NCBI RefSeq assembly: GCF_028641065.1
Contig: NC_073389.1
Span: 11,346,001-11,410,000, forward strand
DNA from: Leucoraja erinacea
Taxonomy: Eukaryota
Length of the DNA stretch: 64,000 nucleotides
Reading direction: 5' to 3'
The notes under the pieces are model-generated. The model had not been told where the DNA came from, made no database searches, and was given only the letters and a program-made list of their open reading frames with translations. Made by a program: the position numbers and the translations under genes. This document shows positions 237-48,816 of this stretch, piece after piece (positions within the stretch are counted from its first letter, which is position 1; each line of letters begins with the position of its first letter).

Positions 237-2665
237 CCAGATTAATATATTGTTTTAGTATGAGGGCTTGGAAATCTCCATTACGTCCATTCTCTGGCAA
301 TGATACTTGCAAATGAATTAGGGTAAATATGCCAGAAACTTATTTATATTTCTGCAACATTCTTTACTTAAGATCCTTAATGCAGAATTTGTGATGAATG
401 TAAACCTGAATCCTAGAGTGAAAGACCACCACACTCATATTTTTACATAAAGATAATGCCATCTACAGGTGTTTATTTTACTGGCATCTCAAGCCTGCTC
501 TCCTAATATTTCCCCAGTCCTGCAAATTTCTTCCCTTCAAATACATATCCCCTTCCCTTTTTAAACACTTCTGTTATAACTGCCTCCATTACTACCCCTG
601 GAAATGTTAAAGTTTTTCCACATTACTTTTTACCGTTTCTTCAATCACTTTCACTCGATGTCTCTAGATCTTCCAAATCCCTCAGACTCATTGGAATCAC
701 TCTCTCAGCATTACAGCGTGTTATTGACATTGCAGTTGCTGGGCTAAGTGCCAGCAGCAGTGTGAACTAACAATAAATCAGTAGAGTTATGCTTAACTTG
801 GGGAAATCTGACAAGATAAATAGAATTGAAGAATAGTCACTGCACAGTAGGCAATTTGTCCAATTGCCTCTGAACTGATTCTGTGTAAGAACCATCCAGC
901 TAGGCCAACTCCCACAGACTCCAGCAGATTTCTTCCTTTCAAATACACATCCAGCTCCTTTCTAAACACCACTATTAAATCTGATAAAGTTAGAACTTTT
1001 CCACATGTTACTTCTGGCTCTTTTGTCAATCATCCTCACTCTTGCCCTTTGGATCGTGACCAATGCAGCAACAGCAAGCATTATCTCCCTCTACTCGTGC
1101 CTATGCTCATCATTATTTTAAATCATTTGTGCAATTTCCTTGTTACCTTCCCTGTTCCAAGAGAACAATCCTGGCTTCTCTCATCCCAAAACCTTTACAC
1201 CTTTCCAAAAAGATAGCACCTAAAAGCAAACACAACACTGTGGTGCTTGAACGAGCATTTTATAAAAGTGCATCGTGACAACCTTGCCCTTACACTAGAG
1301 GTATCCATTTATAAAAGCCGCAATCCAATATGCTTTCTCAAGCACGTTCTCAAGCTGCTGTGCACTATTGGAAATAAGTCATCTGAAACAAAGCCAGATC
1401 CTGTAGAGACGCAGCCTGTCTATATCGGTTTAATAATGACATATCAATTGGGTCATACAAACCTCAGGTCTCAATGTTCTGGTGCCCTTTTTAGAAGTGT
1501 ACCTTCTAGTTGGTATTACTTTTTCTCATTTCTCCAACAAAATGTACTCTGTTTGTCTCACTTGTCACCAATTCTACAGCACGTCTATTTCTCCATTTCA
1601 CACCACAACTACAAGTTTTGCGTCATCTAACCTTACAACTAAAGATTGTATTATTTGTGGTACTTTCTAAAACACCATGAGGATGACATACAATGTTGTT
1701 TTAATGCCAACTACTAGTAAAAGATAGATTTCTAGGCAAACTACAAAGATTAACCTGAACAAAACGTCAGAAACAAATTATAACCCGACTTTAAGAGATG
1801 TGACTGTAGGATTCGGCTTTGCTTCAGCTGGCCTTGCACTGTTAGTGCGATCACTACAATCCGAACACACCAGTATTTCTCCCAATCAAAATCAAAAGAG
1901 CAGCCAATATTGCCCCAGGTAAATGAATGTATCACATGACCAGCATAGATCAAGGGCCATTCATCTTCACACCGATATACTATTTTAATGTAAGGGTGTC
2001 GTTAAATTAAAAAAACAGCAAACCAGGAAATAAAAAGCATAATTTCTGACTAACGTGTTACATATTTTACAGATTGAAACTAAATTGAAACATATTGATG
2101 AGATAAAGATAGATGATGACATATCAAATTATATATTTAAAATTAAATAAATGTTTTTGTACTTTTCAGACAAGTTCTGATAAAGTTCAGATCTTTAAAA
2201 CAATTATCTCAGGGAATTACAATCCACACTTATAAAATTAGCTTTTCAAGGCCAGAAGATTTGATAAGCAATTCATTTAGTTTTGCACACTATACTAAAC
2301 AAAACACTAAACGATTGCAAATTGCCATAAGTATATACTATATGGGAGATTCTAGTGCTATGTTTTCTTCCCAACTCATCCAATTCGTATCCATTATCTG
2401 TTCTCCGAAACCCAGTAATGCAACATAATGTGCTAAAGATAAAGTATTTAACTATGTTTTATGACTGGATTTTATAAAGGGTGAGCAGGGAAACAAATCA
2501 AGGGTATTCCATTTCTGTGGTCATTACAAAATACACGTTTCAAAGTCATTGCCAAGCTATGAAAAATTATATATTACAACATAGATAGGCCAAAGTCTGG
2601 TCTTCAGACTGAAATACTTAATTAATTTGTGCCATAGCTACATAATTGATCACATGTGATCTTCA

Positions 2666-3790
2666 TCTCCATCGACTACTGACCGACATCTACTATAAAC
2701 CCACTGACTCCCATGGCTATCTGGACTTCACTTCCTCCCACCCTGCTTCCTGTAAGGACTCCATCCCCTGCTCTCAATTCCTCCGTCTACGCCGCATCTG
2801 CACACAGGATGAGGTGTTCCAAACCAGGACATCGGAGATGTCCTCCTTCTTTAGGGAACGGGGGTTCCCCTCTTCTACCATAGATGAAGCTCTCATCAAG
2901 GTCTCTTCTATACCCCGTAACTCTGCTCTCACTCCCCATCGTAGCAAGGGCAGAGATCTCCTTGTCCTCACCTTCCACCCTACCAGGCGTCACATACAAC
3001 AAAAAATCCTCCAACATTTTCGCCACCTCCAACAGGATCCCACCACTGGCCACATCTTCCCATCTCCTCCCCTTTCGGCTTTCCGCAGAGACCGCTCACT
3101 CCGTAACTCCCTTGTCCATTCATCCCTTCCCACCCAAACCACCCCTGGCACTTTCCATTGCAACCACAGGAAATGCTACACTTGTCACTTTACCTCCCCT
3201 CTTGACTCTATCCAAGGACCCAAGCAGTCTTTCCAGGTGCAGCAGAGGTTCACCTGCACCTCCTCCAACCTCATCTATTGCATCCGCTGCTCTAGGTGTC
3301 AGCTGCTCTACATTGGTGAGACCAAGCGTAGGCTTGGCGATCGCTTCGCCCAACACCTCCGCTCGGCTTGCAATAACCAACCTGATCTCCCGGTGGCTCA
3401 GCACTTCAACTCCCCCTCCCATTCCGAATCCGACCTTTCTGTCCTGGGCCTCCTCCATGGCCAGAGTGAGGCCCACCATAAATTGGAGGAGCAGCACCTC
3501 ATATTTCCCTTGGGTAGTTTACACCCCAGCGGTATGAACATTGACTTCTCCAATTCCAGGTAGTCCTTGTTTTCTCCTTCTTTCCCCTCTCCCTCCCAGC
3601 TCTCCCACAGCCCACGGTCTCAGCTTCTTCCTTTCTTCTTTCCGCCACCCACCCCCACATCAGTCTGAAGAAGGGTCTTGAACCGAAACGTTGCCTATTT
3701 AATTTGCTCCATAGATGCTCCATCACCCGCTGAGTTTCTCCAGCATTTTTGTCTACCTTCAATTTTCCAGCATCTGCAGTTCCTTCTTAA
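2666..3790 (+). mobile_element. 5'-truncated Penelope-like retroelement (RT C-terminus plus GIY-YIG endonuclease)
   Basis: ORF 2646-3563 has TDIYYKPTDSHGYL (PLE RT thumb), a Cys linker and NLIYCIRCSRCQLLYIGETKRRLGDRFAQH (GIY-YIG). Flanked by a perfect 14-bp direct repeat ACATGTGATCTTCA at 2652-2665 and 3791-3804. Confidence 0.92.
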
Positions 3791-6052
3791 ACATGTGATC
3801 TTCAGGCATGTTCGTATATGTGCTTCTTGATTATGGTTTAGGCAAAACAAGCAGAGAAGACATCAGGAACCTTTGCATTTTGCAGTGACCTGTTGTGATC
3901 ATCCTCATGAAAGGGTAGTGAACGAAATTAATTATTTCGAATCAAAACGTTTGGAAAAATAATTCTAGGGGCCTGGGAAACAGCAGAGAATAGCTGCACA
4001 CGTGCCACGAGCCAAATGACTCCCTGAGTGCTATATCATCACTCAGCTATTCTCAGATTTTTATTCCTGTTTTTTCCTCTTCTAATTATGTTGGCTGATG
4101 GTGAATCTGAACAAAGTCCCGGTCGGTTACTTCCCTTTCTGCAACACCACAGATGGGGAAAATCGTGGCTTTATCCCATCACATTTATCCCCCACAGATG
4201 CTGCCTGACTCGCTGAGTCGCTCCAGAACCTGGTGTTTTGCCCAAGATTACAGCATCTGCAATTCCTTGTGTCTCCACAGCTATGTTGTTTACAGAAGTC
4301 AACAGAAAACAACTCGGTGTGGGAACCCCTACTGATCTCTTCTTCCTTCAGGGACGTTGATGGCAGACGGAAGGTTTCTTACTGCATCCCTGGCTGACTT
4401 CAACCAGCTCAGCAGAGACCAAGTGAAGAGGCTATACCCTGGTGGCAGCAGTATATTTATACACCTGTGCCTGTAACGCGAGTAATGATAGAGAACGTCC
4501 TCACCTTCCACCCTACCAGGCGTCACATACAACAAAAAATCCTCCAACATTTTTGCCACCTCCAACGGGATCCCACCACTGGCCACATCTTCCCATCTCC
4601 TCCCCTTTTGGCTTTCCGCAGAGACCGCTCCCTCCGTAACTCCCTTGTCCATTCGTCCCTTCCCACCCAAACCACCCCCTCTCCTGGCACTTTCCATTGC
4701 AACCGCAGGAAATGCTACACTTGTCACTTTACCTCCCCTCTTGACTCTATCCAAGGACCCAAGCAGTCTTTCCAGGTGCAGCAGAGGTTCACCTGCACCT
4801 CCTCCAGCCTCATCTATTGCATCCACTGCTCTAGGTGTCAGCTGCTCTATATTGGTGAGACCAAGCGTAGGCTTGGCGATCGCTTCGCCCAACACCTCCA
4901 CTCGGCTTGCAATAACCAACCTGATCTCCCGGTGGCTCAGCACTTCAACTCCCCCTCCCATTCCGAATCCGACCTTTCTGTCCTGGGCCTCCTCCATGGC
5001 CAGAGTGAGGCCCACCATAAATTGGAGGAGCAGCACCTCATATTTCCCTTGGGTAGTTTACACCCCAGCGGTATGAACATTGACTTCTCCAATTCCAGGT
5101 AGTCCTTGTTTTCTCCTTCTTTCCCCTCTCCCTCCCAGCTCTCCCACAGCCCACGGTCTCAGCTTCTTCCTTTCTTCTTTCCGCCACCCCCCCCCCCCCC
5201 CCCCCACCCCCACATCAGTCTGAAGAAGGGTCTTGAACCGAAACGTTGCCTATTTCATTCGCTCTATAGATGCTCCCTCACACGCTGAGTTTCTCCAGCA
5301 TTTTTGTCTACCTTCAATTTTCCAGCATCTGCAGTTGCTTCTTAAACATGTGATCTTCAGGCATGTTCGTATATGTGCTTCTTGATTATGGTTTAGGCAA
5401 AACAAGCAGAGAAGACATCAGGAACCTTTGCATTTTGCAGTGACCCGTTGTGATCATCCTCATGAAAGGGTAGTGAACGAAATTAATTATTTCGAATCAA
5501 AACGTTTGGAAAAATAATTCTAGGGGCCTGGGAAACAGCAGAGAATAGCTGCACACGTGCCACGAGCCAAATGACTCCCTGGGTGCTGTATCATCACTCA
5601 GCTATTCTCAGATTTTTATTCCTGTTTTTTCCTCTTCTAATTATGTTGGCTGATGGTGAATCTGAACAAAGTCCCAGTCGGTTACTTCCCTTTCTGCAAC
5701 ACCACAGATGGGGAAAATCGTGGCTTTATCCCATCACATTTATCCCCCACAGATGCTGCCTGACTCGCTGAGTTGCTCCAGAACCTGGTGTTTTGCCCAA
5801 GATTACAGCATCTGCAATTCCTTGTGTCTCCACAGCTATGTTGTTTTACAGAAGTCAACAGAAAACAACTCGGTGTGGGAACTCCTACTGATCTCTTCTT
5901 CCTTCAGGGACGTTGATGGCAGACGGAAGGTTTCTTACTGCATCCCTGGCTGACTTCAACCAGTTCAGCAGAGACCAAGTGAAGAGGCTATACCCTGGTG
6001 GCAGCAGTATATTTATACACCTGTGCCTGTAACGCGAGTAATGATAGAGAAC
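2964..6052. repeat. Head-to-tail tandem duplication of about 1.55 kb (copy 1 2964-4496, copy 2 4497-6052)
   Basis: Near-identical sequence including unique flank. Junction reads gatagagaac|gtcctcaccttcc at 4496/4497. Confidence 0.93.
4497..5346 (+). mobile_element. Second, partial copy of the Penelope-like element created by the tandem duplication
   Basis: ORF 4467-5102 is nearly identical to the C-terminal part of ORF 2646-3563 and is followed by the same 3' flank. Confidence 0.9.
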
Positions 6053-6203
6053 TTCTAATAATTTATAATACACAACTGCATTCCTCCCCGAGAAGAACCA
6101 TGCACTATTAACCTGGCACCAGCAAAAGGAAATCTTTCCCTGTAGTAAATTTAAGATCCTGACAATGAGAAGGATTAGATTAACCTTTGAAGCGCCCACC
6201 AAC

Positions 6204-7310
6204 CTGAAATATCTGTAGAATATTGTGTTTCTCCATGTACAGCACAGATCGCTTATATGGATCTTCAAAACAGGTTCCAATTTTTTCTTCAAAGTCTGCA
6301 GACATCTCTGTCACAGCTGAAGCTAAAATCTCAGTTGCAGCTGCAGTTTGATCAGTGGTGCCAGCTGCAGGTTCAGATGTTTCAGATTTACCTACTGGTT
6401 CAGTTTTAGATCCATTAATGACCTGCCCCTCTTGTTCAGGTGCAGTCTCTGCCACCGGTTCTCCTGCAGTTTCTGTCCCTGGTTCAACTGCAGTCTCTGC
6501 CACAGGCTCAGCCGCAGGCTCTGGTTCAGTTGCAGTCTCTGCCACAGGCTCAGCCGCAGGCTCTGGTTCAGTTGCAGGCTCTGCCACAGGTTCATCTGCA
6601 GGTTCTGGTTCATCTGCAGGTTCTGGTTCATCTGCAGGTTCTGGTTCGGCTGCGGGTTCTGGTTCGGCTGCAGGTTCTGGTTCGGCTGCAGGTTCTGGTT
6701 CGGCTGCGGGTTCTGGTTCATCTGCAGGTTCTGGTTCGGCTGCGGGTTCTGGTTCGGCTGCAGGTTCTGGTTCGGCTGCAGGTTCTGGTTCGGCTGCAGG
6801 TTCTGGTTCGGCTGCGGGTTCTTGTTCGGCTGCGGGTTCTTGTTCGGCTGCAGGTTCTGGTTCGGCTGCAGGTTCTGGTTCGGCTGCAGGTTCTGTTTCG
6901 GCTGCGGGTTCTGGTTCATCTGCGGGTTCTGGTTCGGCTGCAGGTTCTGTTTCGGCTGCAGGTTCTGGTTCGGCTGCAGGTTCTGGTTCGGCTGCAGGTT
7001 CTTGTTCGGCTGCAGGTTCTTGTTCGGCTGCAGGTTCTTCTTCAGCTGCAGGTTCTTCTTCAGGTGCAGGTTCTTCTTCAGCTGCAGGTTCTTCTTCAGC
7101 TGCAGGTTCTTCTTCAGCTGCAGGTTCCTCATCTACAGGCTCTGGGTCAGCTGCAGGCTCTGCCACTGGTTCTGTATCTAGTTCCGCTGAATTTCCTCCC
7201 ACTGGTTCTGCTGACTCCATTTCTGGGGCGCGAGGGAGAATTTCTGGTTCATCAACAGGATTGACTGCAGATCCATCAGTTTCCTTTTCGGTGGGGTTCT
7301 GATCATCATT
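6204..7310 (-). CDS. TEX55: TEX55-like (C3orf30) testis protein, large internal exon: acidic Glu/Pro/Ala repeat plus start of the RIIa-like dimerization/docking domain
   Basis: Acceptor ccttacag|AAT at 7310 and donor TTTCAG|gttggt at 6204; 1107 nt, phase 0/0, no stops. C-terminal [21 protein letters not shown] matches the recalled TEX55 motif [12 protein letters not shown]. The next exon was not located in the window. Confidence 0.8.
6480..7165 (-). repeat. Coding 18-bp tandem repeat ([18 protein letters not shown], roughly 30 units) with 36-bp variant units at one end
   Basis: Plus strand (ggttctggttcggctgca)n and variants; explains the multiple overlapping long ORFs here. Confidence 0.95.
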
Positions 7311-7339
7311 CTGTAAGGTTATATAGTTAATGGATGTTC

Positions 7340-31912: not shown

Positions 31913-33905
31913 TCAGTGGTCCAGGCAGCATCTCTGGAGAATATGGATAGGCAGCGTTTCCGGTCGGGGCCCTTCATCAAACTGATTCTTTAGACAGGCA
32001 CAATTAAAACGTTTGTCTGACTCAAGGAATGAATTAAAGCGTAAATTGCAGATCTGAAAGTTCCTCATTTCATAACTTAATAGCCTTAATGCATGGCTGT
32101 ACTGATAATTTCCATAGGGTCAGCTAAATAATTGGGAAACCTGTGTCAAGCTTAAAATCTTATTAACTTTCAATTGGAATAGCTGGCCAGAATCAACAGC
32201 TTTAACTAAGTGTGTGATACTGATATTCGGCCCTTTTCTTGCTGTCTGGTAAGTTTGCGAATTGTGATTGAGATTATGCTGAAACTGTGAAACTTACCTC
32301 AGCTGGGACTCCAGCTTTATTGCCATTCTTTAACCACCATTTTAGAACTGTGCAGATGTCAACACTGAGCTTAACCACTGTGCTCAGTGAGTGAATAGCC
32401 AACCATCTTGCAACTGAAGCTCATATGTGCCCATAAGAAGAGGAGGCAGAGGATGATCTCCATGTCAATGTTAAAGAAATAAATTACTAAAAGACATATC
32501 TTAATGTTTGTGGGAAGGGAGCAAGGGCATGGCATAAGCATGCCAAAGATAGGCTGCAGAGGGGCATGGAGGTCCTACCAAATTTAGCAGCAGGTCATAT
32601 TAATTATTGTTTTTTATGCTCCTGTTCCCCACTTGCCAGCAGGCCTGATTGGGGGAAATGGACCAGAAAGCAAACAGTAAAAACTCACAACTAATGGGAA
32701 TCTGCAGCAGGCATAGAATTGGGTGAGGAAGGATCTTCCACCAGGTGTGGTGATGAGACCAGAGAAGCAAACATCTGCTAGATTTGGGTGTTGTGCCAAT
32801 CCCTGGGGACATTTCTTCAGCCGGCATTACATTTCAATGCTTGCTATACATCTAAGGAATTGAGCCTTGGTAACATTACAATGGTGTTCTTTTTTTCTTC
32901 AATGGAAGCCCCCAAGCTACCTGCAGCTAGCCAGAAATTGGTTGAGGTTGCATATTATCTATTTATCATTTTGTCTCTGATTCTCTCCCATCTTTCAGTC
33001 GGGGGGTTGGAGATTTTAGCACCCGAGTTTCTTTTAGTAAACTACTGATGGGGATTTCAGGAGAGTACAGTCGTCGTAGTAATTCAAAGGAGCAATTAAA
33101 TAATTTATGTGTAGTTATTCAGGATATTTTTGCATTCTAGCTGCCCTTTTGGGATGTATTCTATAATTACTTTTCAGTACATCAAGAAAGGCACATGGTA
33201 CATGTCCTGGGTGAAATATCACTAATGTCAACATGTAGGGTTCATTGTCACCACCCCACTAGTAATCTGGAGAGTACACAGGCACCTTATCTGATCTTCA
33301 TTATCATGTGATTGATTTAAATAGAATAAATAAAATTATTTTGGGTGTTGAAATATTCCATTGTGGTGCTAAAATTGTGAATACTATAAACATACTGACA
33401 GTGAACACTGTCTATATTGATAATGAGCCATCTGAATACAAACTGGTGATGGCACTGAAATGAGCATTAAACCTGCTAATAACAGCGATGACAAGTACTT
33501 TCGATGCAAACTGATGACAATAATGAACTGTTGATGAAAACTGATGTTACTCTTAAATTTATTTTGATGTTTGGCAATCAAATTAGTTGCTGACATTAAG
33601 CCAATGAGAATTGTGGTTTGATTATGTTTAAAAACATTTCCTACTTTAATTCTGTGCCATGCTACAGTATTCAATTAATGTAAAGCACCTAAAATGTAAT
33701 GATTAACTTAAATTACTAACTATTACCACTACCTACACCTGAAATGTAATTACTACTGCAGAGGTTTCAAAGAATACCATGGTTTATAATGTTCTCTGAA
33801 AAAAAGGGGAACTCGGGTAAGCCAATAATTCTATAGATTCCTTAAACATTTTATTTCACCTTGATGCACATTAATATTCAATGTTTTGTCTGTTTCAGGG
33901 TATTA

Positions 33906-34610
33906 ATGGCAGGAAATGTGGATGTGTACAACTCTTCTGTTCATGACTCCTGTGTATCTTCAGGGTTTAAAACCCTATACGAGGAGGGATTATTATTTGA
34001 TGTCACCCTAGTTATTGAGGATCACCAGTTTCAGGCTCACAAGGCACTGTTGGCTACACAGAGTGACTACTTTCGAATAATGTTCACAGCTGACATGAGG
34101 GAGCGGGACCAGAACAAGATTCACCTTAAAGGACTCACTCCAACAGGCTTTAGTCATGTCCTACAATTTATGTATTATGGCTCCATTGAACTGAACATGA
34201 GCACTGTCCATGAGATCCTCCAGGCAGCCATGTATGTCCAGTTAACTGAGGTGGTGAAATTCTGCTGTTCCTTCCTGTTGTCAAAAATCTGCTTGGACAA
34301 CTGTGCAGAAATCATGCGACTTTTAGATGATTTCAGTGTTAATATAGACGGTATCCAAGAACAACTGGACAAGTTCCTGCTCGAGAATTTCGTACCACTC
34401 ATGTCCCGAGCTGATTTTCTGTCGTACCTGAGTGTTGAGAAGCTCTTGACATGTTTGGAAAATGATCAACTGAGCCGATTCCCAGAGATTGAGCTCTTTG
34501 AGGCAGCACAGGCCTGGCTGCGACATGACAGAAGCCGTTGGAGGCACACAGATGCCATTGTTCAAAATGTCAGGTTTTGTCTGATGAATACAGCAAACGT
34601 TTTGGAAAAG
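33906..34610 (+). CDS. KLHL15: Kelch-like protein 15, coding exon 1 (BTB and BACK domains)
   Basis: Acceptor tgtttcag| at 33898, ATG at 33906, donor AAG|gttagt at 34610; 705 nt; LFDVTLVIEDHQFQAHKALLATQSDYFRIMFTADMRERDQ matches recalled KLHL15. Confidence 0.96.
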
Positions 34611-37600
34611 GTTAGTATGTTTGAAAGCAGTAACCAAGTCACAGCGCTGGGGCAAGACCATTGAGTGCTGTGAGGAAATGATCAGTCACGACCCATTTAC
34701 TCTTTGCTTTAGTTAGCTTGATTTATTATAATTAGCAATTAGTCTTTGCCGCATTTCACTCTTTAGCTAGTGCTGATTATAAAAGATATCATGGTGATGG
34801 AATGTGAAGACTTTTTTTGATGAAATCTAAGAATATTGTTTAAAATGGTCCAGCATTTTATAACATTGATTTCTGAGTCATGTTCTTGGGGAGGCAGATA
34901 GATTTTTTTGAATGGTACTTCAGTGTGTTTTTATTTCCTAGTTTTTATAGCAAATGCTCAGCTTTTTATCAAGCTGGAAGGATTCCCATTTTTGATCCAT
35001 TCTTGGTTGTGAATGACAGTACAAATGCCCTGGTTTATTGAGAAGTGAATTCTAGCAAGCCTTTTGGCCACTGATATTTTTAGTGCTTTGATATTTGATA
35101 TTTTCGCTACTTGGAACTGGTATTGAAGTAATTGGGTGTTTATCACCTACATTTGGAAATATGAGCCAGTATAATGTGGAGGTAAAGACAAATAAACAAT
35201 TATGGGCTAAGAGTCAGAGAATCGGTTCACATGAGTGATAATTGAATTATGAAATCTATATTAAAAAAATAGGCTTTTGGCTTTGGTTGGTTCATCTAGA
35301 TTTGATGGATTACTGGCATTTAAGCTTTTTGTGAAAGCAGTTGAACTAGAATTAATGTTCTAATTTTTCAAAACCGCATTGCTCTATAATAGTCATTTCA
35401 TCTTTATTCTTCTGTAGTTTGGTGACATGGGGCACCTCCGGGAAGTGAGCTCTTTTATGTTTATTTCTTATTTAAACTTAAATCTAGCAGCCTTTGCAAG
35501 TGTCACCATTTTGAACATTAACTTTTGCCAAGCACATCTACTTTGAAACGGTTTATGGGGAAGCTGTTAACAAACTGTAGCAGCTACTGTATGTGTTTAT
35601 CAGTCTCGTGAATTCAGAAGAATCAAGTTAATCTACATGCCCAAAACCTTTGAATTCAGACTGGGATCTTACAGGATCTGAAAGGAAAATGCACCTTGCT
35701 TTGAATTTATTCCAATCTGTGCCCACACAATTTAACATAATTCCACTCATCAAAAACAAAATGGCGTTGATTATAACTGCAAATGTAAATTCAGCTGAAA
35801 GGTACAATAGAGCTCACTTAAGGTTTACTTTTCTGTTTGTGCTAGGTGATGCATTTCTTACAACCAATTGGGTAGCTTTGCTGTGGATTTTGAGAATTGG
35901 TTTGTTGAATGTGCTTTTTCCTTTCTCCTCCCTCCTTTTGAATTGTCAGCGACGTGCATTGTAATTGGAGGTAGGCTGGGAGAAAAGGCCTGCTCTTGCC
36001 GTTCTTCCAACTTTCCAACCCCAGTACACTTCCCTTAGCACCTGAAGCTAACAGTTCTAAAGATCCAGCCTGGTGTAAAGTTTTCTATTCCTCAAAGATA
36101 ACCAGTTGATTCATAAATGTTATAGTATCTTCTGCCAACCTTTTTTTTTTTTTTTTTTTTTTAATCAACCTTCATCAGCCGTGGTCAGTTTGAGTTTTGT
36201 AGTCCAGACAAGACAACTTGACTTGTGCAACTTGGGTGACTGACGGGGTAGTTTTGGGTAAAATCTGGTGTTAAATTAATTAATAGGTGCAACATAAAAA
36301 GCTCAGTTTGGTGCTTCAGTGTTACATTTAATAGTTTGTTTGATAATGACATGTACCCTGTTGTCTTTGAGCTTTGAGCTTTTTGTACCCATTGATGCAG
36401 CATCAAACACTGAGCAGTGTGACTGCTTATCTGCAGAGAGTAGGATCTGCTACTTATTTCCTCATTCTAAGCAAAACTATTGGAGAGTATTTGGATCAAA
36501 GCTAGAATTCATACGAGCAAAAGAGACTTGGGGTTAACGCCAATTCACGGTAGTTATCAATGGGTGTTACCTGTTACCTCTGCTATTTTTGCAAGATTTG
36601 CTGATTTGGTAAGGCGAAGGAAGCAGAATAATGATGCTCATGTTAGCGACTGTAATTGTCATCCATCTTGTATGTGAAAATGTACACTTGTGATATTGAT
36701 ATAATTACAGAAACTTTCTTGAGCAAAAGAGATGTTTTATTGTTTTTGTTTGGTGTTATTATTTGGGGGAGGGAAAGGGACAGGACACACACTTTTACTC
36801 TAATACAGCTCACCTTTTGCAGTAATACACCAGCCGTGTGCCGTGGACTGATACTTCCAGCACACAACACAATGTGGAGAGCAATTATACTGGGGAAACC
36901 ATCCTAGCCTGTAAGTCTTTGTGCATTTATTTGTAAATAAAATGCAAGCTGTAAGAATGATCAGAGAGCACAATGATTTGCGCAAACTAATATAATTGGC
37001 CAGAGGTTTGCGGAAGAAAGGCATAAAGCCATAGTCTTTAAATTTAGATCTTCTATGAATCATAAAGAAGGATTTTATTTCTGTTTGATTTACTTTTCTT
37101 CGCTACTCCAGAATTAATTAATTAACAAGGAGAACGATTTCCTTGTGGTGCTGTCCAGATAGCACATGCCAAACGTAAATTCTATCCTGCAGTTTCACTT
37201 TGACTAAATTTACTTTTAGTGGGCGTTACTTAATGGTGTGTTTAAAACTGGGCTTATTAAAAATACGTCTTATTAAATGTGTTTTTCCTTCCACACATAC
37301 AATACTTCAATTTAGTTGGGTCAAGTCAAAATAAAAATAAAGCACAACCAGAGCTGCCTGTGTTGACTGAACATCCTAACACTTTTGCAATCAAGTCTTT
37401 ACAAGAATTATATTACTACTCATTCAAATGGACCAAAATTACATACTACAGCCATTAGCAATTCAAATATTCGGACATTTTACTTTTTTCTGTTTTGCAT
37501 CTGTGCTAAGTCAGGATGATGTGCTTCATTGTTCAATCTTTACCATGGCTCTATTAATTTCCTTTCATTGTAGATGCCTGTATTGTAAGTATTATATTTG

Positions 37601-40186
37601 ACCTATTTCAGTGTAAATCTGGTGAAAACCAGCAATACCAGAGGCAATGTTTTGCTATTAGAAGTGTTGTGCTTTTTAACCAGTGAAGTAGATTGGTTAC
37701 TGATTTGCACTTTTATAGTTTTGTTTTCACCTTATTGTTTTCATCATCGCACCCCATCAAAAATCAACTGTGCTTCTATTGTGAACAGTCGTATTAATCT
37801 AGGGTTTTGTCGACTCGGGTGTACTGGTACTTATTTGTATGGTTAAGTTCTGAAGCCAGGGACATTAGGGATGTCTTGGAGTTGAAATAAAGGATCTTGA
37901 TAAATCAGTTTCAATGTGTTTTGTAAATCGAAGACTTAAAATGACTTTTCCATGATCTCCTTTAGATTCCATGCCGGTAAATGCATCTGAGGTGATGGTT
38001 AAATTTCTTCTTTGTTTTCTTTTATCCTCTAAATGTAATCCTTTACGAGGGTAGCATATTTTGTGACCCATCCTTTGGTCCATTGGGGTTTTGGAAAACT
38101 TTAAACAAGCCAGCGATTGAATGTTCCACGGTTCTGTTCCAACTTATTTTTGTCCAAAAGTAGACTTTATCTGGGCCCTGACCTTTCAGATGGAGAGTAA
38201 TGGTTGGGACGTAATTGTGCTTCTAAAATTGGTATTGTGCAGTGGCTGTCACTAGTAAGCTTGGCATTTAATGCCCTTCCCTGGCTATCCAGGAGAAGGT
38301 GGTGGTATGTCCTTAATCCAAGTGGTGAAAGTATGGAATCTTTACCCAGTGACAATAAAGTAAGAGCAACATAATTTCACAATACAAGGGGTGGGGGGTG
38401 GGGGGTGCTTTATGTAAAAACTAATATTTAAGCATGGTGTATAAATATGCAACACGAGTAAGGAGTTTACCAAAATATGAAATAATTAATTTCCACAGGC
38501 TCGGTTTCTTGAGCCAAGAGATAGGGAACATCAATCACTGTCTCAGTTTTTATAAATATCAATTTGTCTTTGCTGTAAGCTATGAGCACACGGACATCGG
38601 GTGAGGGTGGGTAATAAGTAAACTGATGTTGATGTTTGACCGTTTCTGCAATCTCGCTTCAAACCGAGAGGGATTTTGGGAGAGCTGCTGGTGTCAACAG
38701 TCTATCAGCCTGATTTCAATTAGGAGGAGAGGGGAAATTGATATTGTCCCATCTGTAGTTGGACTTGTCTGTCTTTATATGGTTATACGTTGATTGATTT
38801 TATGTTTTATATATTTTCAACAATGAGTTTGAACATTGAGTGTTAATTTGCAAAAAAAAAATGCCAGCCAGGTGGAAAATCTGCCCATACTTACACATTT
38901 TCTAAAAAAGTTCCAAACTTATTAATTCTGCAATAATTTGAATAATAAAGAATTGTATAAAGTTCTGTGTTTGAATTTTGTATTATTTCTTGTTTTAAAT
39001 AATTAGATTTAATGTGACTTGTTTTAAAACTAGTTCCTGCATTCTACCTCCGTTTGAGGGTTTTGGGCAGAGATTGCATTACAATCGCAAGTAATTTAAA
39101 AAAAAAAAGTTAAATGAGAAGTGCTGATTCATGCAAAAAAAAAAAGCAGTGGAAGTCCAATTCATTGTAATGCATTTTTCTATTTGTGGCCATTAGGTAT
39201 CCATAACGTCAACAGGTGTGGGTTTTTTTTTTTTGCAGTGATCTAATCCCTTTCCCATAGATTTTGCACTGTCCTCAATATCAAAATGAAGTATTGTCCT
39301 GTGATCCTTGAAATATAAGCCTGAATCACTATCAATTTGAGCTTGTAGGGGAGAATTGTAGTTGTGTTTTAAAAAGAAAAAGGTTAACCTTGCATGAAAA
39401 CAATTGCATTTTGAGCATCCCCAATTAAACGGCGATCCAGTGAAACACTTTTTCTTCTCGTTCAATTTTAATTATCCCAGGTTAAGTTGAAGTGGTTAGC
39501 CGACTGATATTTATTTATGGGAACATTTTCAACTTCATGGTGAATTGATAACGGAATAATAATATAAGAAGGCTATAAGTTAACAATGATATCAAACCAT
39601 CAGTGTCCTGAGATTTAATCTAAGGCAAAGATATTAATCTTGATCTTTTATAACAGGAAATAATGATCCTGACATTAACATAAACGCATGTTGGGTACCA
39701 CATCTGCTCATCATGATACATTTTGTGTTGTCAGATTTCAATTTTCCACTCTTGACTATTTTCATTTGTAAAGTAACAAAATAATATTTGCTTTCTGTGG
39801 TGGTTCAATGTTACCACACAGACTTTGGTGTAGTGTATGTATTGTGTAATTACTTTTTCTTTGGTTACTTAGGCACCATACTACTTGTGTACAGTTTATT
39901 CTGCATTGCTGTTGCTACCTAAAGTGTGAAAGCTGGATTGCAATGTTGATGAATTGAAATACCTCTTGGGTCTAGCCTAAAATGGTGTAGCCATGAAGCC
40001 TACACTTTTGGTGGATTGCTGTAATGTTCATTATTTGGACACCAATTTGCTATTTTTAAGCATTATAGCCATGTTTGGATTTTTAACCAGAACTGGACTG
40101 ATTGCAGCAGGAGTGCATTATTTGTAGTTGATTCTTCCAATTTCTATCATTGTCACCATTTTATTATACCTTCTGATTTTTCTCAG

Positions 40187-41296
40187 GTAAAAACATCTGA
40201 ATTTTATCGTTACTCACGGCAGCTTCGTTTTGAGGTTGAGCAGGCTTTAAGCTACTTTCAGAACATGAATCAGCAACCACTCTTGGAGATGAAGTCTAAT
40301 CGCATTCGCTCCGCCAAGGCACAGACGGCAGTTTTTCGAGGGATGATTGGGCACAGCATGGTGAACAGCAAGATTCTTCTGCTGCACAGGCCCCGGGTTT
40401 GGTGGGAACTGGAGGGTCCACAAGTACCACTGCGACCTGATTGTCTTTCAGTTGTGAACAACTTTGTATTCTTGTTGGGAGGGGAGGAGTTGGGTCCTGA
40501 TGGTGAATTTCATGCCTCATCCAAAGTCTTCCGGTATGATCCTCGACAAAATTCCTGGCTGAGAATGTCGGACATGTCTGTCCCACGGTCTGAGTTTGCT
40601 GTTGGCATCATTGGAAAATACATCTATGCCGTGGCAGGCAGGACAAGAGATGAAACCTTTTATTCAACTGAACGTTATGATATCACGCAAAACAAGTGGG
40701 AATTTATTGATCCGTATCCAGTTAATAAATATGGCCATGAGGGAACAGTTCTTAACAGTAAGCTGTACATAACGGGTGGGATAATGTCCTCTTCAACCTC
40801 CAAGCAAGTGTGTGTTTTTGATCCCAGTAAAGAAGGCACTGTAGAACAGCGGACGAGGAGAACACAAGTGGTTACAACTTGCTGGGAGAACAAGGCTAAA
40901 ATGAATTATGCACGCTGCTTTCATAAAATGATTGCCCACAATGGGAAACTTTATGTTTTTGGTGGTGTGTGTGTAATTTTACGTGCATCTTTTGAGTCAC
41001 AAGGCTGTCCATCAACGGAGGTTTATAATCCTGATTCTGACCAATGGACTATCTTAGCATCAATGCCCATCGGGAGAAGTGGACATGGCGTGGCAGTTGT
41101 TGAAAAGCAGATCATTGTCCTTGGCGGTCTTTGTTACAATGGTCAATACAGTGACTCCATCCTTACCTTCGATCCAGAAGAAAATAAATGGAAAGAAGAT
41201 GAATATCCAAGGATGCCTTGCAAACTAGATGGCCTACAAGTCTGTAGCCTTTACTTTCCTGATTTTGTACTGCAGCATGTTCGGCGATGTACCTAA
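40187..41296 (+). CDS. KLHL15: Kelch-like protein 15, coding exon 2 (Kelch repeats)
   Basis: Acceptor tttttctcag|GTA in phase 0 (VKTSEFYRYSRQLR...); 1110 nt including stop; total CDS 1815 nt = 604 aa; Kelch GG/Y/W motifs. Confidence 0.96.
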   Translation, partial: VKTSEFYRYSRQLRFEVEQALSYFQNMNQQPLLEMKSNRIRSAKAQTAVFRGMIGHSMVNSKILLLHRPRVWWELEGPQVPLRPDCLSVVNNFVFLLGGEELGPDGEFHASSKVFRYDPRQNSWLRMSDMSVPRSEFAVGIIGKYIYAVAGRTRDETFYSTERYDITQNKWEFIDPYPVNKYGHEGTVLNSKLYITGGIMSSSTSKQVCVFDPSKEGTVEQRTRRTQVVTTCWENKAKMNYARCFHKMIAHNGKLYVFGGVCVILRASFESQGCPSTEVYNPDSDQWTILASMPIGRSGHGVAVVEKQIIVLGGLCYNGQYSDSILTFDPEENKWKEDEYPRMPCKLDGLQVCSLYFPDFVLQHVRRCT

Positions 41297-44440: not shown

Positions 44441-45120
44441 TTCATGTGTCAATGTCACTCATTGGATAAGAAAACTAATCAATGGCTTTAATTCTGTAAA
44501 CAGTAATTTGTGAAAAAAAATTCTGAAGATAGTATTTGTGGTTTTACCCAAATTAGTTTAAGGACACAATATGTTTAAATATGCTTGTATTTTTAAATAA
44601 GTAAATGACAGCACCCTAGATACTATATTGTGCAGTTATTTTCATATTGTAAAGGTCGACTGCTTGAAAAGCAATATACAGTTTGAATACTTGCAAAACT
44701 AGGCACTGGCATTCGTAGTGCATTGAGTAATTGTTGAAAAATACCAAGATTCCAGGAACGTTTGTGCAGGATTAGCGTGTAATGGGCACTTGAGTGAGAA
44801 CTCGGGTGTGATGGGGGTGGGGATGAGGTGTGGGGGGGGAGGCTGAAAGTATGCTGTATGGCTCTGGTTTTGAATGTTCTGGAAAATTAACCATCTTAAC
44901 TATTATCCCTGGAAACTACATGCGATTAGATAACTTATTAATTGATTTTGATTAGCTGTGACTTCACGGTTAGATAGTCGACTCCTTTGTATTTTCACAT
45001 GCAGAATGTGAGAATTGCCGGTAACCTAGATTGATCCTTGGTAGTAAATAGTGACACGGATATTGATACGATGAGGCTTCAAGTAAACATTGACAATAAA
45101 TCAGAAGTTTATTTTGCATA

Positions 45121-45625
45121 TGTAGTACGAGAATTTTGGCCGATCAGTCCATGAGCCATAGTGCTGCAGCCGGCAGCACTATATTTAAAGCCCATAAAGC
45201 TGTGGCCGGCAGCGCTTTGTTTAAAGCTCCATGTGTTAAGATGGTAACACTGTGTGTATTGCTTTACGCGCCGGTCTGCGGCTGATAGCGCTTTGTTTCG
45301 GGGGGGGGGGCCTTGCTCGGATGCAGGTTGTAATTTGGGAGCGGCGCTATTGGCCAGGATTTACTGGCAGTTATTTCAACAGTTGATTTCTGCCTGTATA
45401 AAGCCTTAAATTAGTTCATGTACGAGAGGGGTTCAGCGCCGCGGACAGAGGCAGAGAGGGAGAGGTGTGCTGCAGTAAAACACACCCCTCGCATAAGGAC
45501 AAGTATTGTTTTTGTTCTCTCTTGCCAATAAATCCGATTTGTAACTAAACAGACAATAAACTCTAAACAGACGAGTGAGCCTTTTTCTGTTCTAGTCAGA
45601 TCCTTGGACCTGTTCTCTTGTAACA
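45121..45625 (+). repeat. 5' LTR (505 bp)
   Basis: Direct repeat of 46754-47312; TATA-like gtataaag near 45396 and AATAAA near 45527. Confidence 0.9.
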
Positions 45626-45675
45626 ATTGGCCTAGTCTGACAACTAGCATAGAAAATGTATGGTAAAAAGAACAG

Positions 45676-46318
45676 CACTGGTGCAGGCCAAGCGCCCCCG
45701 CAACAAGCTGCTGCCCTCGGTGCAGGGGAGCCCGCAGCAGGACGTGCTGCAGGCGCGACCAGGAACCTCGAGTCTTCAAGCTCCTCCAATGCTTTTAACG
45801 GATCACAAGGGAGAGGTTTATTGTAAATTTCACCCAAATGGATCAACACTGGCATCTACGGGATTTGATCGACTCGCATTGTTTTGGAATGTATATGGCG
45901 ACTGCGATAATTATGCTACATTGAAAGGTCACAGTGGAGCAGTGATGGAATTTCATTATAACACAGATGGCAGCATGGTTTTTCCAGCATCAACAGATAA
46001 AACTAGCAGTGTGGGACAGTGAAACGGATGAATCAAGAGACTTAAAGGTCACACATCCTTTTGTGAATTCATGGTATGCAGCCCGACGGGGCCCACAGTT
46101 GGTCTGTACAGGAAGCGACGACGAAACAGTGAAGCTATGGGGCATTCGGAAGAAGGCTGCAACCCATACATTTCGAAACACGTACCAAGTACTGGCAGCA
46201 GTGTTTAATGATGCAAGCTATCAGATTTTCTCTGGTGGTATTGATAACGACATTAAGGTTTGGCAAAACAAGTTAATTTACACCATGCTTGGTCATACAG
46301 ACTGGGTGACTGGGTTTG
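45676..46318 (+). pseudogene. SNRNP40: Processed, 3'-truncated SNRNP40 (U5 snRNP 40 kDa WD40 protein) pseudogene inside the LTR element
   Basis: SSLQAPPMLLTDHKGEVYCKFHPNGSTLASTGFDRL...WNVYGDCDNYATLKGHSGAVME, ARRGPQLVCTGSDDETVKLW, SGGIDNDIKVW match recalled SNRNP40; no introns; frameshifts and small deletions. Confidence 0.93.
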
Positions 46319-46324
46319 ACCCTG

Positions 46325-46690
46325 CGTGGGGTAAAAGATGCCGCCATCACAGATCTATCAGTGGATAAAGTGGCCATTTGCACCGAAGCCCTACAGAACC
46401 GTATGGCCCTGGATTTCATCCTGGCTGAGAAATGGAGCACTTGTGCTATGATCGGGTGGGTGTGCTGTACTTGTATTCCCAGTGATTCGGAGAACATCAC
46501 TAACCTCGCTGACTACATCCAGAAAGACGTGGGGAAGATTCAAAAGGGTAGGAGGACAATACCACGACTACAATCCCTTTTGGAATGTTTGGAGGCTGGT
46601 GGGCAACAGTCGTGCACTGAGGACTGACCATTGGGACAATCTTATTGGCCATAATATTACTGTGTGGTGTGTGCGTATTGGCATAATGAC
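46325..46690 (+). pseudogene. Retroviral env transmembrane-subunit remnant
   Basis: ALQNRMALDFILAE (CKS-17-like immunosuppressive domain), CAMIGWVCC (CX6CC), NIT sequon; after a frameshift a hydrophobic GLTIGTILLAIILLCGVCVLA stretch. Confidence 0.88.
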
Positions 46691-46753
46691 TGTCGACTTT
46701 ACTAACGCCTGCGGGCTGGATGTGATGGTAACCTGACTGTTTGAGGAGTGGAA

Positions 46754-47312
46754 TGTAACATGAGAATTTTGTCCGAGCAGTCCATGAGCCATAGCGCTGT
46801 GTTTAAAGCCCATAGCGCTGTGGCCGGCAGCGCTTTGTTTAAAGGTCCACACGCTAAGTTCTGTTTAAGCCTTTGCTCGCCAATTCGGCAGCGCTGTGTA
46901 TATTACCTTACGCGCCAAGTCTACGGCCAGTAGCATTGTGTGTGTATTGCTTTACGCGCCAGTCTGCGGCTGATGGGGAGGGGGCTCGCTCGGATGCAGG
47001 CCTCTGCCATTGGTTGCAGTTTAAATTTGGGAGCTGCGCTATTGGCCAGGACTTAACAGCGGTTAATTCAACAGCTGATTTCTGCCTGTATAAAGCAGTA
47101 AGCCACAAGTTAGTTCATGTACGAGAGGGGTTCGATAGTTGAGTCGCGATCAGTGTCGCGGACCAAGGCAGAGAGAGAGGGAGTGTGCTGCTATAATGCG
47201 GACCCCGTCCATAGCAAGTATTGTTTTTGTTCTCTCTCCTGCCAATAAATATGAATTGTAACTAAACAGACAGTTCTACTAGACAGATCCTTGGACCTGT
47301 TTTCTTGTAACA
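46754..47312 (+). repeat. 3' LTR (559 bp)
   Basis: Begins tgtaacatgagaattttgtccgagcagtccatgagccatag and ends gatccttggacctgttttcttgtaaca, matching the 5' LTR. Confidence 0.9.
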
Positions 47313-48816
47313 GCATATTAATAATTTGTTTTTAAATGTAACAAATTATGTATTACACTATGTTACTATTTGACAATTCGTACCTAGTCATTTTTTTCGA
47401 TCATTTGTAACCGTCAGTGGCTTGCTGTTCTTTTTCCGTCAGATTTCTGGGTTTATAATCTTTACTCATATGGAATTATGCACTTAAATTACTTCCATCT
47501 TAATTTTAAAATTCAAAAGGAAGAATCACAGGTGGATTGACATCGTTTCACCATAGCAACATATTTCATTCCTAAATTTTAAAAGACATCTTTAAACTAG
47601 ATCTCGTCCAGCATCCTGGCATGTCAAAACAATCGAGTATTATTCGCATCTATTTATTTACTCTTTCTTCTAAATACTTATGCATTTAAATTACCTACAG
47701 TACCTGATCACTAACTTTGCAAAATTCTTGATGTTTCTAATTGCAGAATAAATATGGAATAATCTGGTTGCAACTTAACAAGTGTGGCAGTGCATCATTC
47801 AGTTTATCTCCTAGTGTGAATCTACGCAATGTTTCCGTTTTTAAAAACTCCAATCCATTTTGAAGAAGCCATTTGGTGATTTTCAACACATAAATATCCT
47901 CTTGATACCTTGCTTAAATATAATCTGGATAATGAATATTATATTCACCTGAAACCCAGGCTGGAAACTAAGCCCATTTGTTCCCATTGATCTCAAATGG
48001 ACTTCCACAATCCACTAGATTTCAACAATTGTTGAGACAATGTTGTCAAGCTCATCCCTGGAGATTAAGGCAGTCTCCAAAAATATGTGTACACACTGAT
48101 CAAAGATTTTTTTCTCTCTCCAGTACTTAATTTCATGCATAAGATGCCATCTCCTAAGCTGCTGCTATGTCTTAGATAATATAAAATGCATAAGGGGTTA
48201 AACACAATTGCTGTTCCCAATAGGAAGAATGGAAAGATCCATGGCACAGTTCAATGCCCGGGCCAATATTATTCCTCAACCCAGATGAAAAATATTTCAG
48301 TACTGTTTTGGGACCTTCCTTTGATCACTTTAACTGTTGTCTATCTACATTAGAGTTCAAAAGTAATCCATTGCCCACAAAATGCTGCGCTCTACCTGTA
48401 AGTAAAGTGAGCTGTTAAAGCAGATACCTCTGCTCTGATTTATCGGACCAAGAGACAAAATTGATTTTGACCACAACTGATTAAACTTCATGCATTGTTA
48501 AACCATGCATACAGTATAGTACAACTTGTTGGAAATGTATTAGAGCTACTATGCTCAGCATAAGCCATGCCTTCAAAGAAAAGGGAAATATCGCAAGGAT
48601 GTTAATTGGACTTTCTCCCAACTGTGTGTAGAAATACCATGATCCCAAACACTCAACATTTATATTAAAGATCAATTTTATATCAAAGTAAAGGCACACA
48701 ATGTAATTTGCACATGGTGTCGGTCAAAGTTAAAGGCAACAGCAAGCACATTTTTTGACAGGGCATAAATGAATGTCTGTTACATTTGATCTGCCCTTCT
48801 AATACATGGTCTTGTT

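Follow-up and report, generated by a model that had tools for sequence, protein, structure and literature searches.

Acutely transforming retroviruses carry host coding sequence between the start of gag and a remnant of env, a layout that makes them dependent on a helper. The relevant part of one paper treats v-src and v-sis as members of this group (PMC13297096). In the germline, the capture of host mRNAs by vertebrate retroviruses is called uncommon, with single-digit copy numbers, in the pertinent sections of two reports (PMC4299795, PMC5131818). The first describes two crocodilian endogenous retroviruses (ERVs), CrocERV31 with nectin3 and CrocERV29 with KIT-ligand (Chong et al. 2014, PMC4299795), and the second describes retrocopies mediated by long terminal repeats (LTRs), with HERV-K/FAM8A1 as an example (Tan et al. 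2016, PMC5131818). Here we analyse an LTR element at 45116..47317 of a 64,000-nucleotide stretch of the genome of the skate Leucoraja erinacea (NC_073389.1, positions 11,346,001 to 11,410,000 of the forward strand; hereafter the window), which holds part of the spliceosomal gene SNRNP40. We read it as one decayed copy of an ERV that is non-autonomous and carries a spliced SNRNP40 mRNA, with, very probably, one origin by switching of reverse transcriptase (RT) and subsequent copying by helper proteins, the host piece being a passenger.

With the acutely transforming retroviruses the element shares the position of the host sequence between a gag start and an env remnant, but its cargo is a broken housekeeping gene of the spliceosome, with no sign of selection after insertion. 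The crocodilian ERV4 captures, in the sections that describe them, are likewise germline ERVs of the class with a 5-bp target-site duplication (TSD) that took up host mRNAs, occur in several copies with deletion derivatives and are older than host speciation. They number 6-9 copies, hold whole open reading frames (ORFs) under purifying selection and keep gag/pol, whereas the skate element is found at no fewer than 77 loci and its truncated, neutrally decaying fragment replaces gag, pol and most of env. The LTR-mediated retrocopies, as presented in the relevant sections of Tan et al. (PMC5131818), resemble it in that an mRNA replaces the internal ORFs, is truncated at its 3′ end, lacks poly(A) and a TSD of its own, shows microsimilarity at its joints (here 9/11 bases at the 3′ joint and about one at the 5′ joint) and goes through non-autonomous rounds; host sequence between LTRs, lost introns, absence of poly(A) and of an own TSD, and further retroposition were all found here. 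The cases set out in those sections are single loci or few insertions and include no cartilaginous fish, whereas the skate chimera is the commonest form among the leaders found. The element is therefore a further case of a known class of capture, and what sets it apart is its high copy number, the near-total replacement of viral coding sequence and the lack of selection. Literature searches found no publication on this SNRNP40 element, and the main text of the Vertebrate Genomes Project preprint (PMC13320880) has 0 mentions of SNRNP40 or skate; its supplementary retrocopy tables may list these loci.

An SNRNP40 mRNA fragment between retroviral ends

The host SNRNP40 gene has ten exons (G000:C26:26800480-26816455), and its protein is identical to skate SNRNP40 (P0002) at 347/348 residues. 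The cargo of the window element (45675..46318, + strand), which is frameshifted and spans codons ~12-232, matches six consecutive host exons (1-6) over 45675-46316, in order and with no intron, at 87-99% identity, and the insert's two frames align to human SNRNP40 with E values of 1.6e-54 and 1.1e-44. The original prediction of intron loss was thus borne out by alignment to the parental locus, exons 1-6 being joined without the five introns. Wherever copies of the family cover the five exon joints, the exons abut without interruption: 41/41, 50/50, 47/47, 54/54 and 53/53 copies (245/245 cases). As had also been claimed, the cDNA lacks its 3′ third, the segment stopping near codon 232 of 348, and it has no poly(A), the longest A-run being ≤4 in 55/56 joints and ≤6 in 56/56. 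A TSD belonging to the SNRNP40 segment itself was looked for, and no repeat was seen around the cargo. Within the window copy, the exon 3 part (45882-45973) is identical to the host at 91/92 bases and the other exons at 87-91%; gene conversion was considered for this exon and rejected, as the exon is almost without family-wide differences and chance probably suffices. A second host copy of SNRNP40 lies in tandem, 86 kb off across an N gap and 96-98% alike (G000:C26:26797001-26937000), possibly an uncollapsed haplotype.

All parts of the element lie on the + strand. A 5-bp TSD, GCATA, is found in identical form at 45116..45120 and 47313..47317. The 5′ LTR (45121..45625; 505 bp, TG...CA) has 36-bp repeats in U3, a TATA-like motif at 45396 and AATAAA at 45527, and the 3′ LTR (46754..47312; 559 bp, TG...CA) has AATAAA at 47244; the pair differs by 13-16%. 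Behind the 5′ LTR is the shortened remnant of a primer-binding site (PBS) of tRNA-Ser(AGA) type (45628..45637), with ~10 bases left where sister copies have all 18; the site is complementary to tRNA-Ser(AGA) genes of the host in 4/4 loci scanned. The viral leader and first gag codons follow (45638..45674, ATG at 45656), and the same leader runs on into gag in relatives L143-L146. The cargo then stands in place of gag, pol, SU (the surface subunit) and the front part of env. At its end is a putative switch zone (46319..46329), in which host mRNA and env are identical at 9/11 bases and have the reading frame in common, and which opens the remnant of a gamma-type env transmembrane subunit (TM; 46319..46735). 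This remnant matches syncytin-1 (E 4e-5) and, with a very high score, TLV_coat clusters; its membrane anchor is frameshifted. An ISD-like stretch (~46391-46423) and CX6CC (46442-46468) were both found in it, which are given as marks of gamma-type Env in the relevant part of 10.1101/2021.11.23.469661. In a Pfam search, the env remnant and 2 gag fragments gave no match. A polypurine tract (PPT) assigned from sequence (46743..46753) precedes the 3′ LTR. The TSD, LTRs, PBS-like site, SNRNP40 segment, env TM remnant and PPT are each where the original prediction had placed them.

Copies, relatives and age

SNRNP40 matches were found in 72/78 loci examined in the skate's own genome, and five further loci (L148, L155-L157, L161) retain no more than the 5′ joint or short pieces, for a total of at least 77, a lower bound as several searches scored part of their candidates. 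Where their ends survive, the copies start immediately ahead of Met11, at host coding sequence (CDS) base ~28, and stop at ~695-707; no convincing match past residue ~240 was found outside the host gene among the best 116 of 315 candidates scored. A 3-base loss, one codon's worth near CDS 118, is common to every copy (columns 118-119 are absent in 72/72 projected). Since one 5′ joint, one 3′ joint (with one exception) and this deletion are all shared where preserved, a single capture is indicated. The number of loci, the missing introns, the absence of poly(A) and the microsimilarity at the 3′ joint uphold the claim that SNRNP40 was captured and spread in a non-autonomous ERV family.

The 56 joints at the 3′ end were classed by script as short-env (52), long-env (2) and other (2), and the longer env is carried by the window copy, L073 and L070. 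The window copy is therefore of the rarer long-env form, and the deletion inside env came later and gave the majority subfamily. The length of that deletion by script is 129-148 bases, varying between decayed relatives, and its in-frame status was judged from the env frame on both sides rather than from this length. One copy (L063, G000:C2:45650200-45652600) has the family 5′ joint and leaves SNRNP40 near CDS ~261 for pol-end/env-SU sequence missing from the other copies, and has likely been through another round of recombination, this time with helper RNA of full length. Another locus (L120, G000:C3:58090100-58091600) holds a tandem pair of PBS-SNRNP40 units. The public 'LOW QUALITY' SNRNP40-like skate protein P0040 terminates in env TM sequence (compare L112), its gene model having been drawn from a member of the present family. 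No short SNRNP40-like protein of other elasmobranchs was among the 9 matches listed, which is too little to show absence.

Relatives without SNRNP40 have the same leader running into gag, then decayed protease, RT, tether, RNase H and integrase (IN), and a full env. In their pol, Pfam places RVP and RT_RNaseH_2 above cut-off and gives weak RNase_H and Integrase_H2C2 matches; the nearest pol matches are an uncharacterised ray protein and two unnamed proteins. Class III-like ERVs lack a zinc finger in gag, and a dUTPase comes after IN in ERV3 but not in ERV4 or some ERV3. In L056, env is close behind IN, with no clear dUTPase. The integrase motif looks like class III. A class III-like ERV (ERV3 or ERV4) would fit, a label drawn from the 5-bp TSD, the deciding feature being the position in an RT tree; a TSD of this length is consistent with ERV3 or ERV4 in Table 1 of PMC4299795. 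A pattern built on the PBS and leader gave 58 matches, classed by hand, of which 52 lead into SNRNP40, 2 into gag, 1 into a homeobox cargo and 3 into unrelated sequence, compared to 0 in a reversed control; seven of them were new, comprising 4 more SNRNP40 copies and the 3 unrelated sites. The SNRNP40 chimera is thus the commonest form of its lineage (52/55 family leaders found), a ratio that is valid for this sub-lineage only, as near relatives of the copies are what the pattern tends to pick up. Remnants of int-env-LTR on small unplaced contigs (L056, L057, L059, L060, L061, L064, L151, L152) are 93-98% alike and in several cases have part of env, inverted, next to the LTR; they probably go back to segmental duplication of a single old copy.

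Both outer LTR ends were found by script in 11/71 copies, and a 5-bp TSD with ≤1 mismatch in 6 of these 11, compared to a control rate of 1.8%; the TSDs all differ, and none is of 4 or 6 bp. The 5′ flanks of 10 copies are unrelated to each other. Across copies, LTR pairs differ by a median Kimura two-parameter distance of 0.16 (0.12-0.27). When the 44 longest copies were placed in a tree with two host rows, shorter copies being excluded, the result was star-like, with 6/43 inner branches supported among its 46 rows and a median end branch of 0.072; its bootstrap had not settled. Both flank-LTR joints of the window insertion are bridged, at ~3-4% difference, by contigs from runs X3, X5 and X9, which belong to three other organisms (B, C and D), so that the burst is several times older than the splits of these organisms. 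The SNRNP40 capture is found in several related species. In the SNRNP40 region the summed depth of these contigs is high, X3 also includes the short-env joint, and none of those listed spans the whole element. Dating in years was tried and rejected: with the direct shark mutation rate of 7e-10 per generation given in the relevant part of PMC10587355, the age comes to ~1e8 generations, too old to be credible, and the relative age alone is given here.

Origin of the chimera

The same ERV family captured a second host mRNA. One copy (L062, G000:C12, cargo 50910986-50911529; L062:1986-2529) has the family LTR, a full PBS, ~100 bases of gag, a homeobox mRNA and env; its 3′ LTR was looked for and not found. 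The cargo matches a three-exon gene on C15 (L141, L142) at 435/539 bases (CDS 1-645), both introns (110 and 1294 bases) are absent, and at the 5′ joint gag and the host 5′ untranslated region (UTR) share an exact 8-base match. Atlas gave VEX1 as a strong lead for this gene, which looks vent-like. L062 is the only homeobox-carrying copy among the 125/125 candidates scored. The vent-like gene itself occurs twice in tandem, 70 kb apart (G000:C15:6385001-6465000), possibly an uncollapsed haplotype.

For SNRNP40, the RT of a class III-like retrovirus would have switched, once, between the RNA of the virus and an mRNA of the host packaged along with it, and the chimera would then have been copied many times in trans by helper proteins with the SNRNP40 piece as a passenger, its success likely being due to short length and an active LTR and not to the cargo. 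The switch itself is likely, judged from the 9/11-base match at the 3′ joint (chance 0.001; same residues, same frame) and ~1 base common to host and virus at the 5′ joint; template switching as originally proposed is thus well supported for the 3′ joint only. Mobilisation in trans is likewise likely, the LTRs, PBS, leader and PPT being retained and no enzyme encoded. Several observations weigh against this account. The 5′ joint fits a DNA-level fusion with read-through equally well. Both outer LTR ends were found by script in only 11/71 copies, and 5/11 of those showed no TSD. The env frame is preserved both by the 3′ joint and by the later env deletion, host Met11 stands in 38/45 copies, and near-fixed differences from the host comprise 17 synonymous (S) and 7 nonsynonymous (N) changes. 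Finally, no intact helper provirus was found among ~35 env-, int- or gag-bearing loci, reached by DNA searches in which the best 40 of 92, 40 of 81 and 40 of 47 candidates were scored; the autonomous parent with the same LTR that had been expected is represented by decayed relatives with gag/pol only.

The asymmetry of the joints, ~1 base at the 5′ side and 9/11 at the 3′ side, would be expected if a provirus at or in SNRNP40 exon 1 had been joined by a DNA deletion, viral 5′ end to codon 10, and its spliced read-through RNA had then been co-packaged, so that switching made the 3′ joint only. Capture independent of similarity is named as possible in the relevant section of Tan et al. (PMC5131818). 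This two-step transduction, which would alter the origin of the 5′ joint and leave the later history as it is, is possible but rather less likely than not to have occurred, as the family LTR was not found in 140 kb around the host gene, where there were exon matches only, and the 8-base match in L062 argues that the family is able to make 5′ joints by switching. LINEs are abundant in the host genome, and the 3′ microsimilarity could have guided a deletion instead of a switch; a LINE-made processed pseudogene could accordingly have landed in an existing provirus, with later deletions taking away poly(A), TSD and viral genes ahead of the amplification. We regard this as very improbable, because two extra deletions would be required at the same place in all copies, poly(A) is absent from 56 joints, the last third of the 3′-truncated cargo is in no copy (best 116 of 315 candidates scored) and a second gene was captured with identical architecture. 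On these grounds the original prediction was right to disfavour a LINE retrocopy. An assembly chimera or segmental duplication, brought to mind by the tandem host SNRNP40 with its 96-98% likeness across an N gap, has next to no probability: TSDs and flanks differ, the copies lie on many contigs, and the bridging of both flank-LTR joints in three other organisms refutes it.

Fate and meaning of the cargo

After insertion, the SNRNP40 cargo decays neutrally. Outside CpG sites, 1637 N and stop changes stand against 524 S changes (rate ratio 1.09), and among variants in ≥3 copies the counts are 171 and 64, with N not depleted; purifying selection on an intact cargo ORF, of the v-onc and crocodilian type, is thus not seen after insertion. 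In 35/39 copies gag starts in another phase than SNRNP40, and the gag frame is shut after six codons in 25/39. An in-frame gag fusion at the 5′ joint was also considered and is not claimed, as the start is in phase in 3/5 relatives without SNRNP40 and out of phase in those 35/39 copies, with a variable A-run between. Because the gag start is mostly out of phase and closed early and Met11 is mostly kept, a master protein, if there was any, would have run from Met11 into the env tail. Frames from Met11 now have 10-184 codons (median about 52) and reach the env joint in 0/38 copies. The window copy has lost Met11; its 120-aa ORF (45660..46022, + strand) exists as the original prediction had it, but its ATG, which is not conserved, was created in this copy alone by a deletion together with a sequence change, and the frame ends after a frameshift; the ORF is likely incidental, and the importance implied for it is not supported.

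A truncated WD40 protein from Met11 fused to the env membrane anchor, or a cis-acting RNA, could have been useful during the spread. This would account for two joints in frame, at the 3′ end and in the later env deletion, for Met11 in 38/45 copies behind a gag frame mostly closed early, for the 17 S versus 7 N near-fixed columns, for SNRNP40 in 52/55 family leaders and for 4 RNA reads that cross the short-env joint. We consider it unlikely, given that an in-frame joint is expected 1-in-3 by chance in each case, variants common to ≥3 copies show no N depletion, a third of the propeller is missing from the fragment, and 4/7 near-fixed N changes and the lost codon are at residues that five further vertebrate SNRNP40 proteins all share. 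Host drift alone predicts 10-14 S of the near-fixed differences and leaves p 0.04-0.49; the excess, which is unpolarised, is largely explained by host synonymous drift, and early selection on the cargo is unlikely. It is similarly doubtful that the lineage repeatedly trapped mRNAs of the germline or early embryo (SNRNP40, vent-like homeobox) and that in it the SNRNP40 chimera out-multiplied its helper thanks to the cargo. If this were true, a spliceosomal gene fragment would have been put to retroviral use.

In a single-cell RNA run, of which ~1% was sampled, 56 reads were placed on the family, only 1 at ≥99% identity. Four of the reads cross the short-env joint, and 4 are from family LTRs with poly(A) 17 bases past AATAAA (behind 45549). 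Low-level transcription of some members of the family is therefore indicated, though intronic RNA may account for reads, and nothing ties it to the window copy.

Elsewhere in the window, a BTB-kelch gene has two large exons (33846-34664 and 40025-41296, + strand) and is presumably KLHL15-like. The element lies on the same strand, 3.8 kb downstream of the stop codon of this gene, and the poly(A) signals of its LTRs could thus be situated within the BTB-kelch 3′ UTR. A long open frame on the opposite strand (6180-7337, -) has EPEPAA-type repeats and ends in a likely splice donor; it is probably an exon that codes for part of an acidic protein of repetitive sequence. Two near-identical GIY-YIG-like retroelement ends, 1.6 kb apart (2646-3563 and 4398-5102, +), are, we assume, Penelope-type.

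For skates, the insertions are serviceable as presence/absence markers in phylogeny. The family as a whole indicates that a cargo is able to spread widely without sign of function, which provides a null against claims of selected capture, and such cargos may record the mRNAs present at the site of viral replication.

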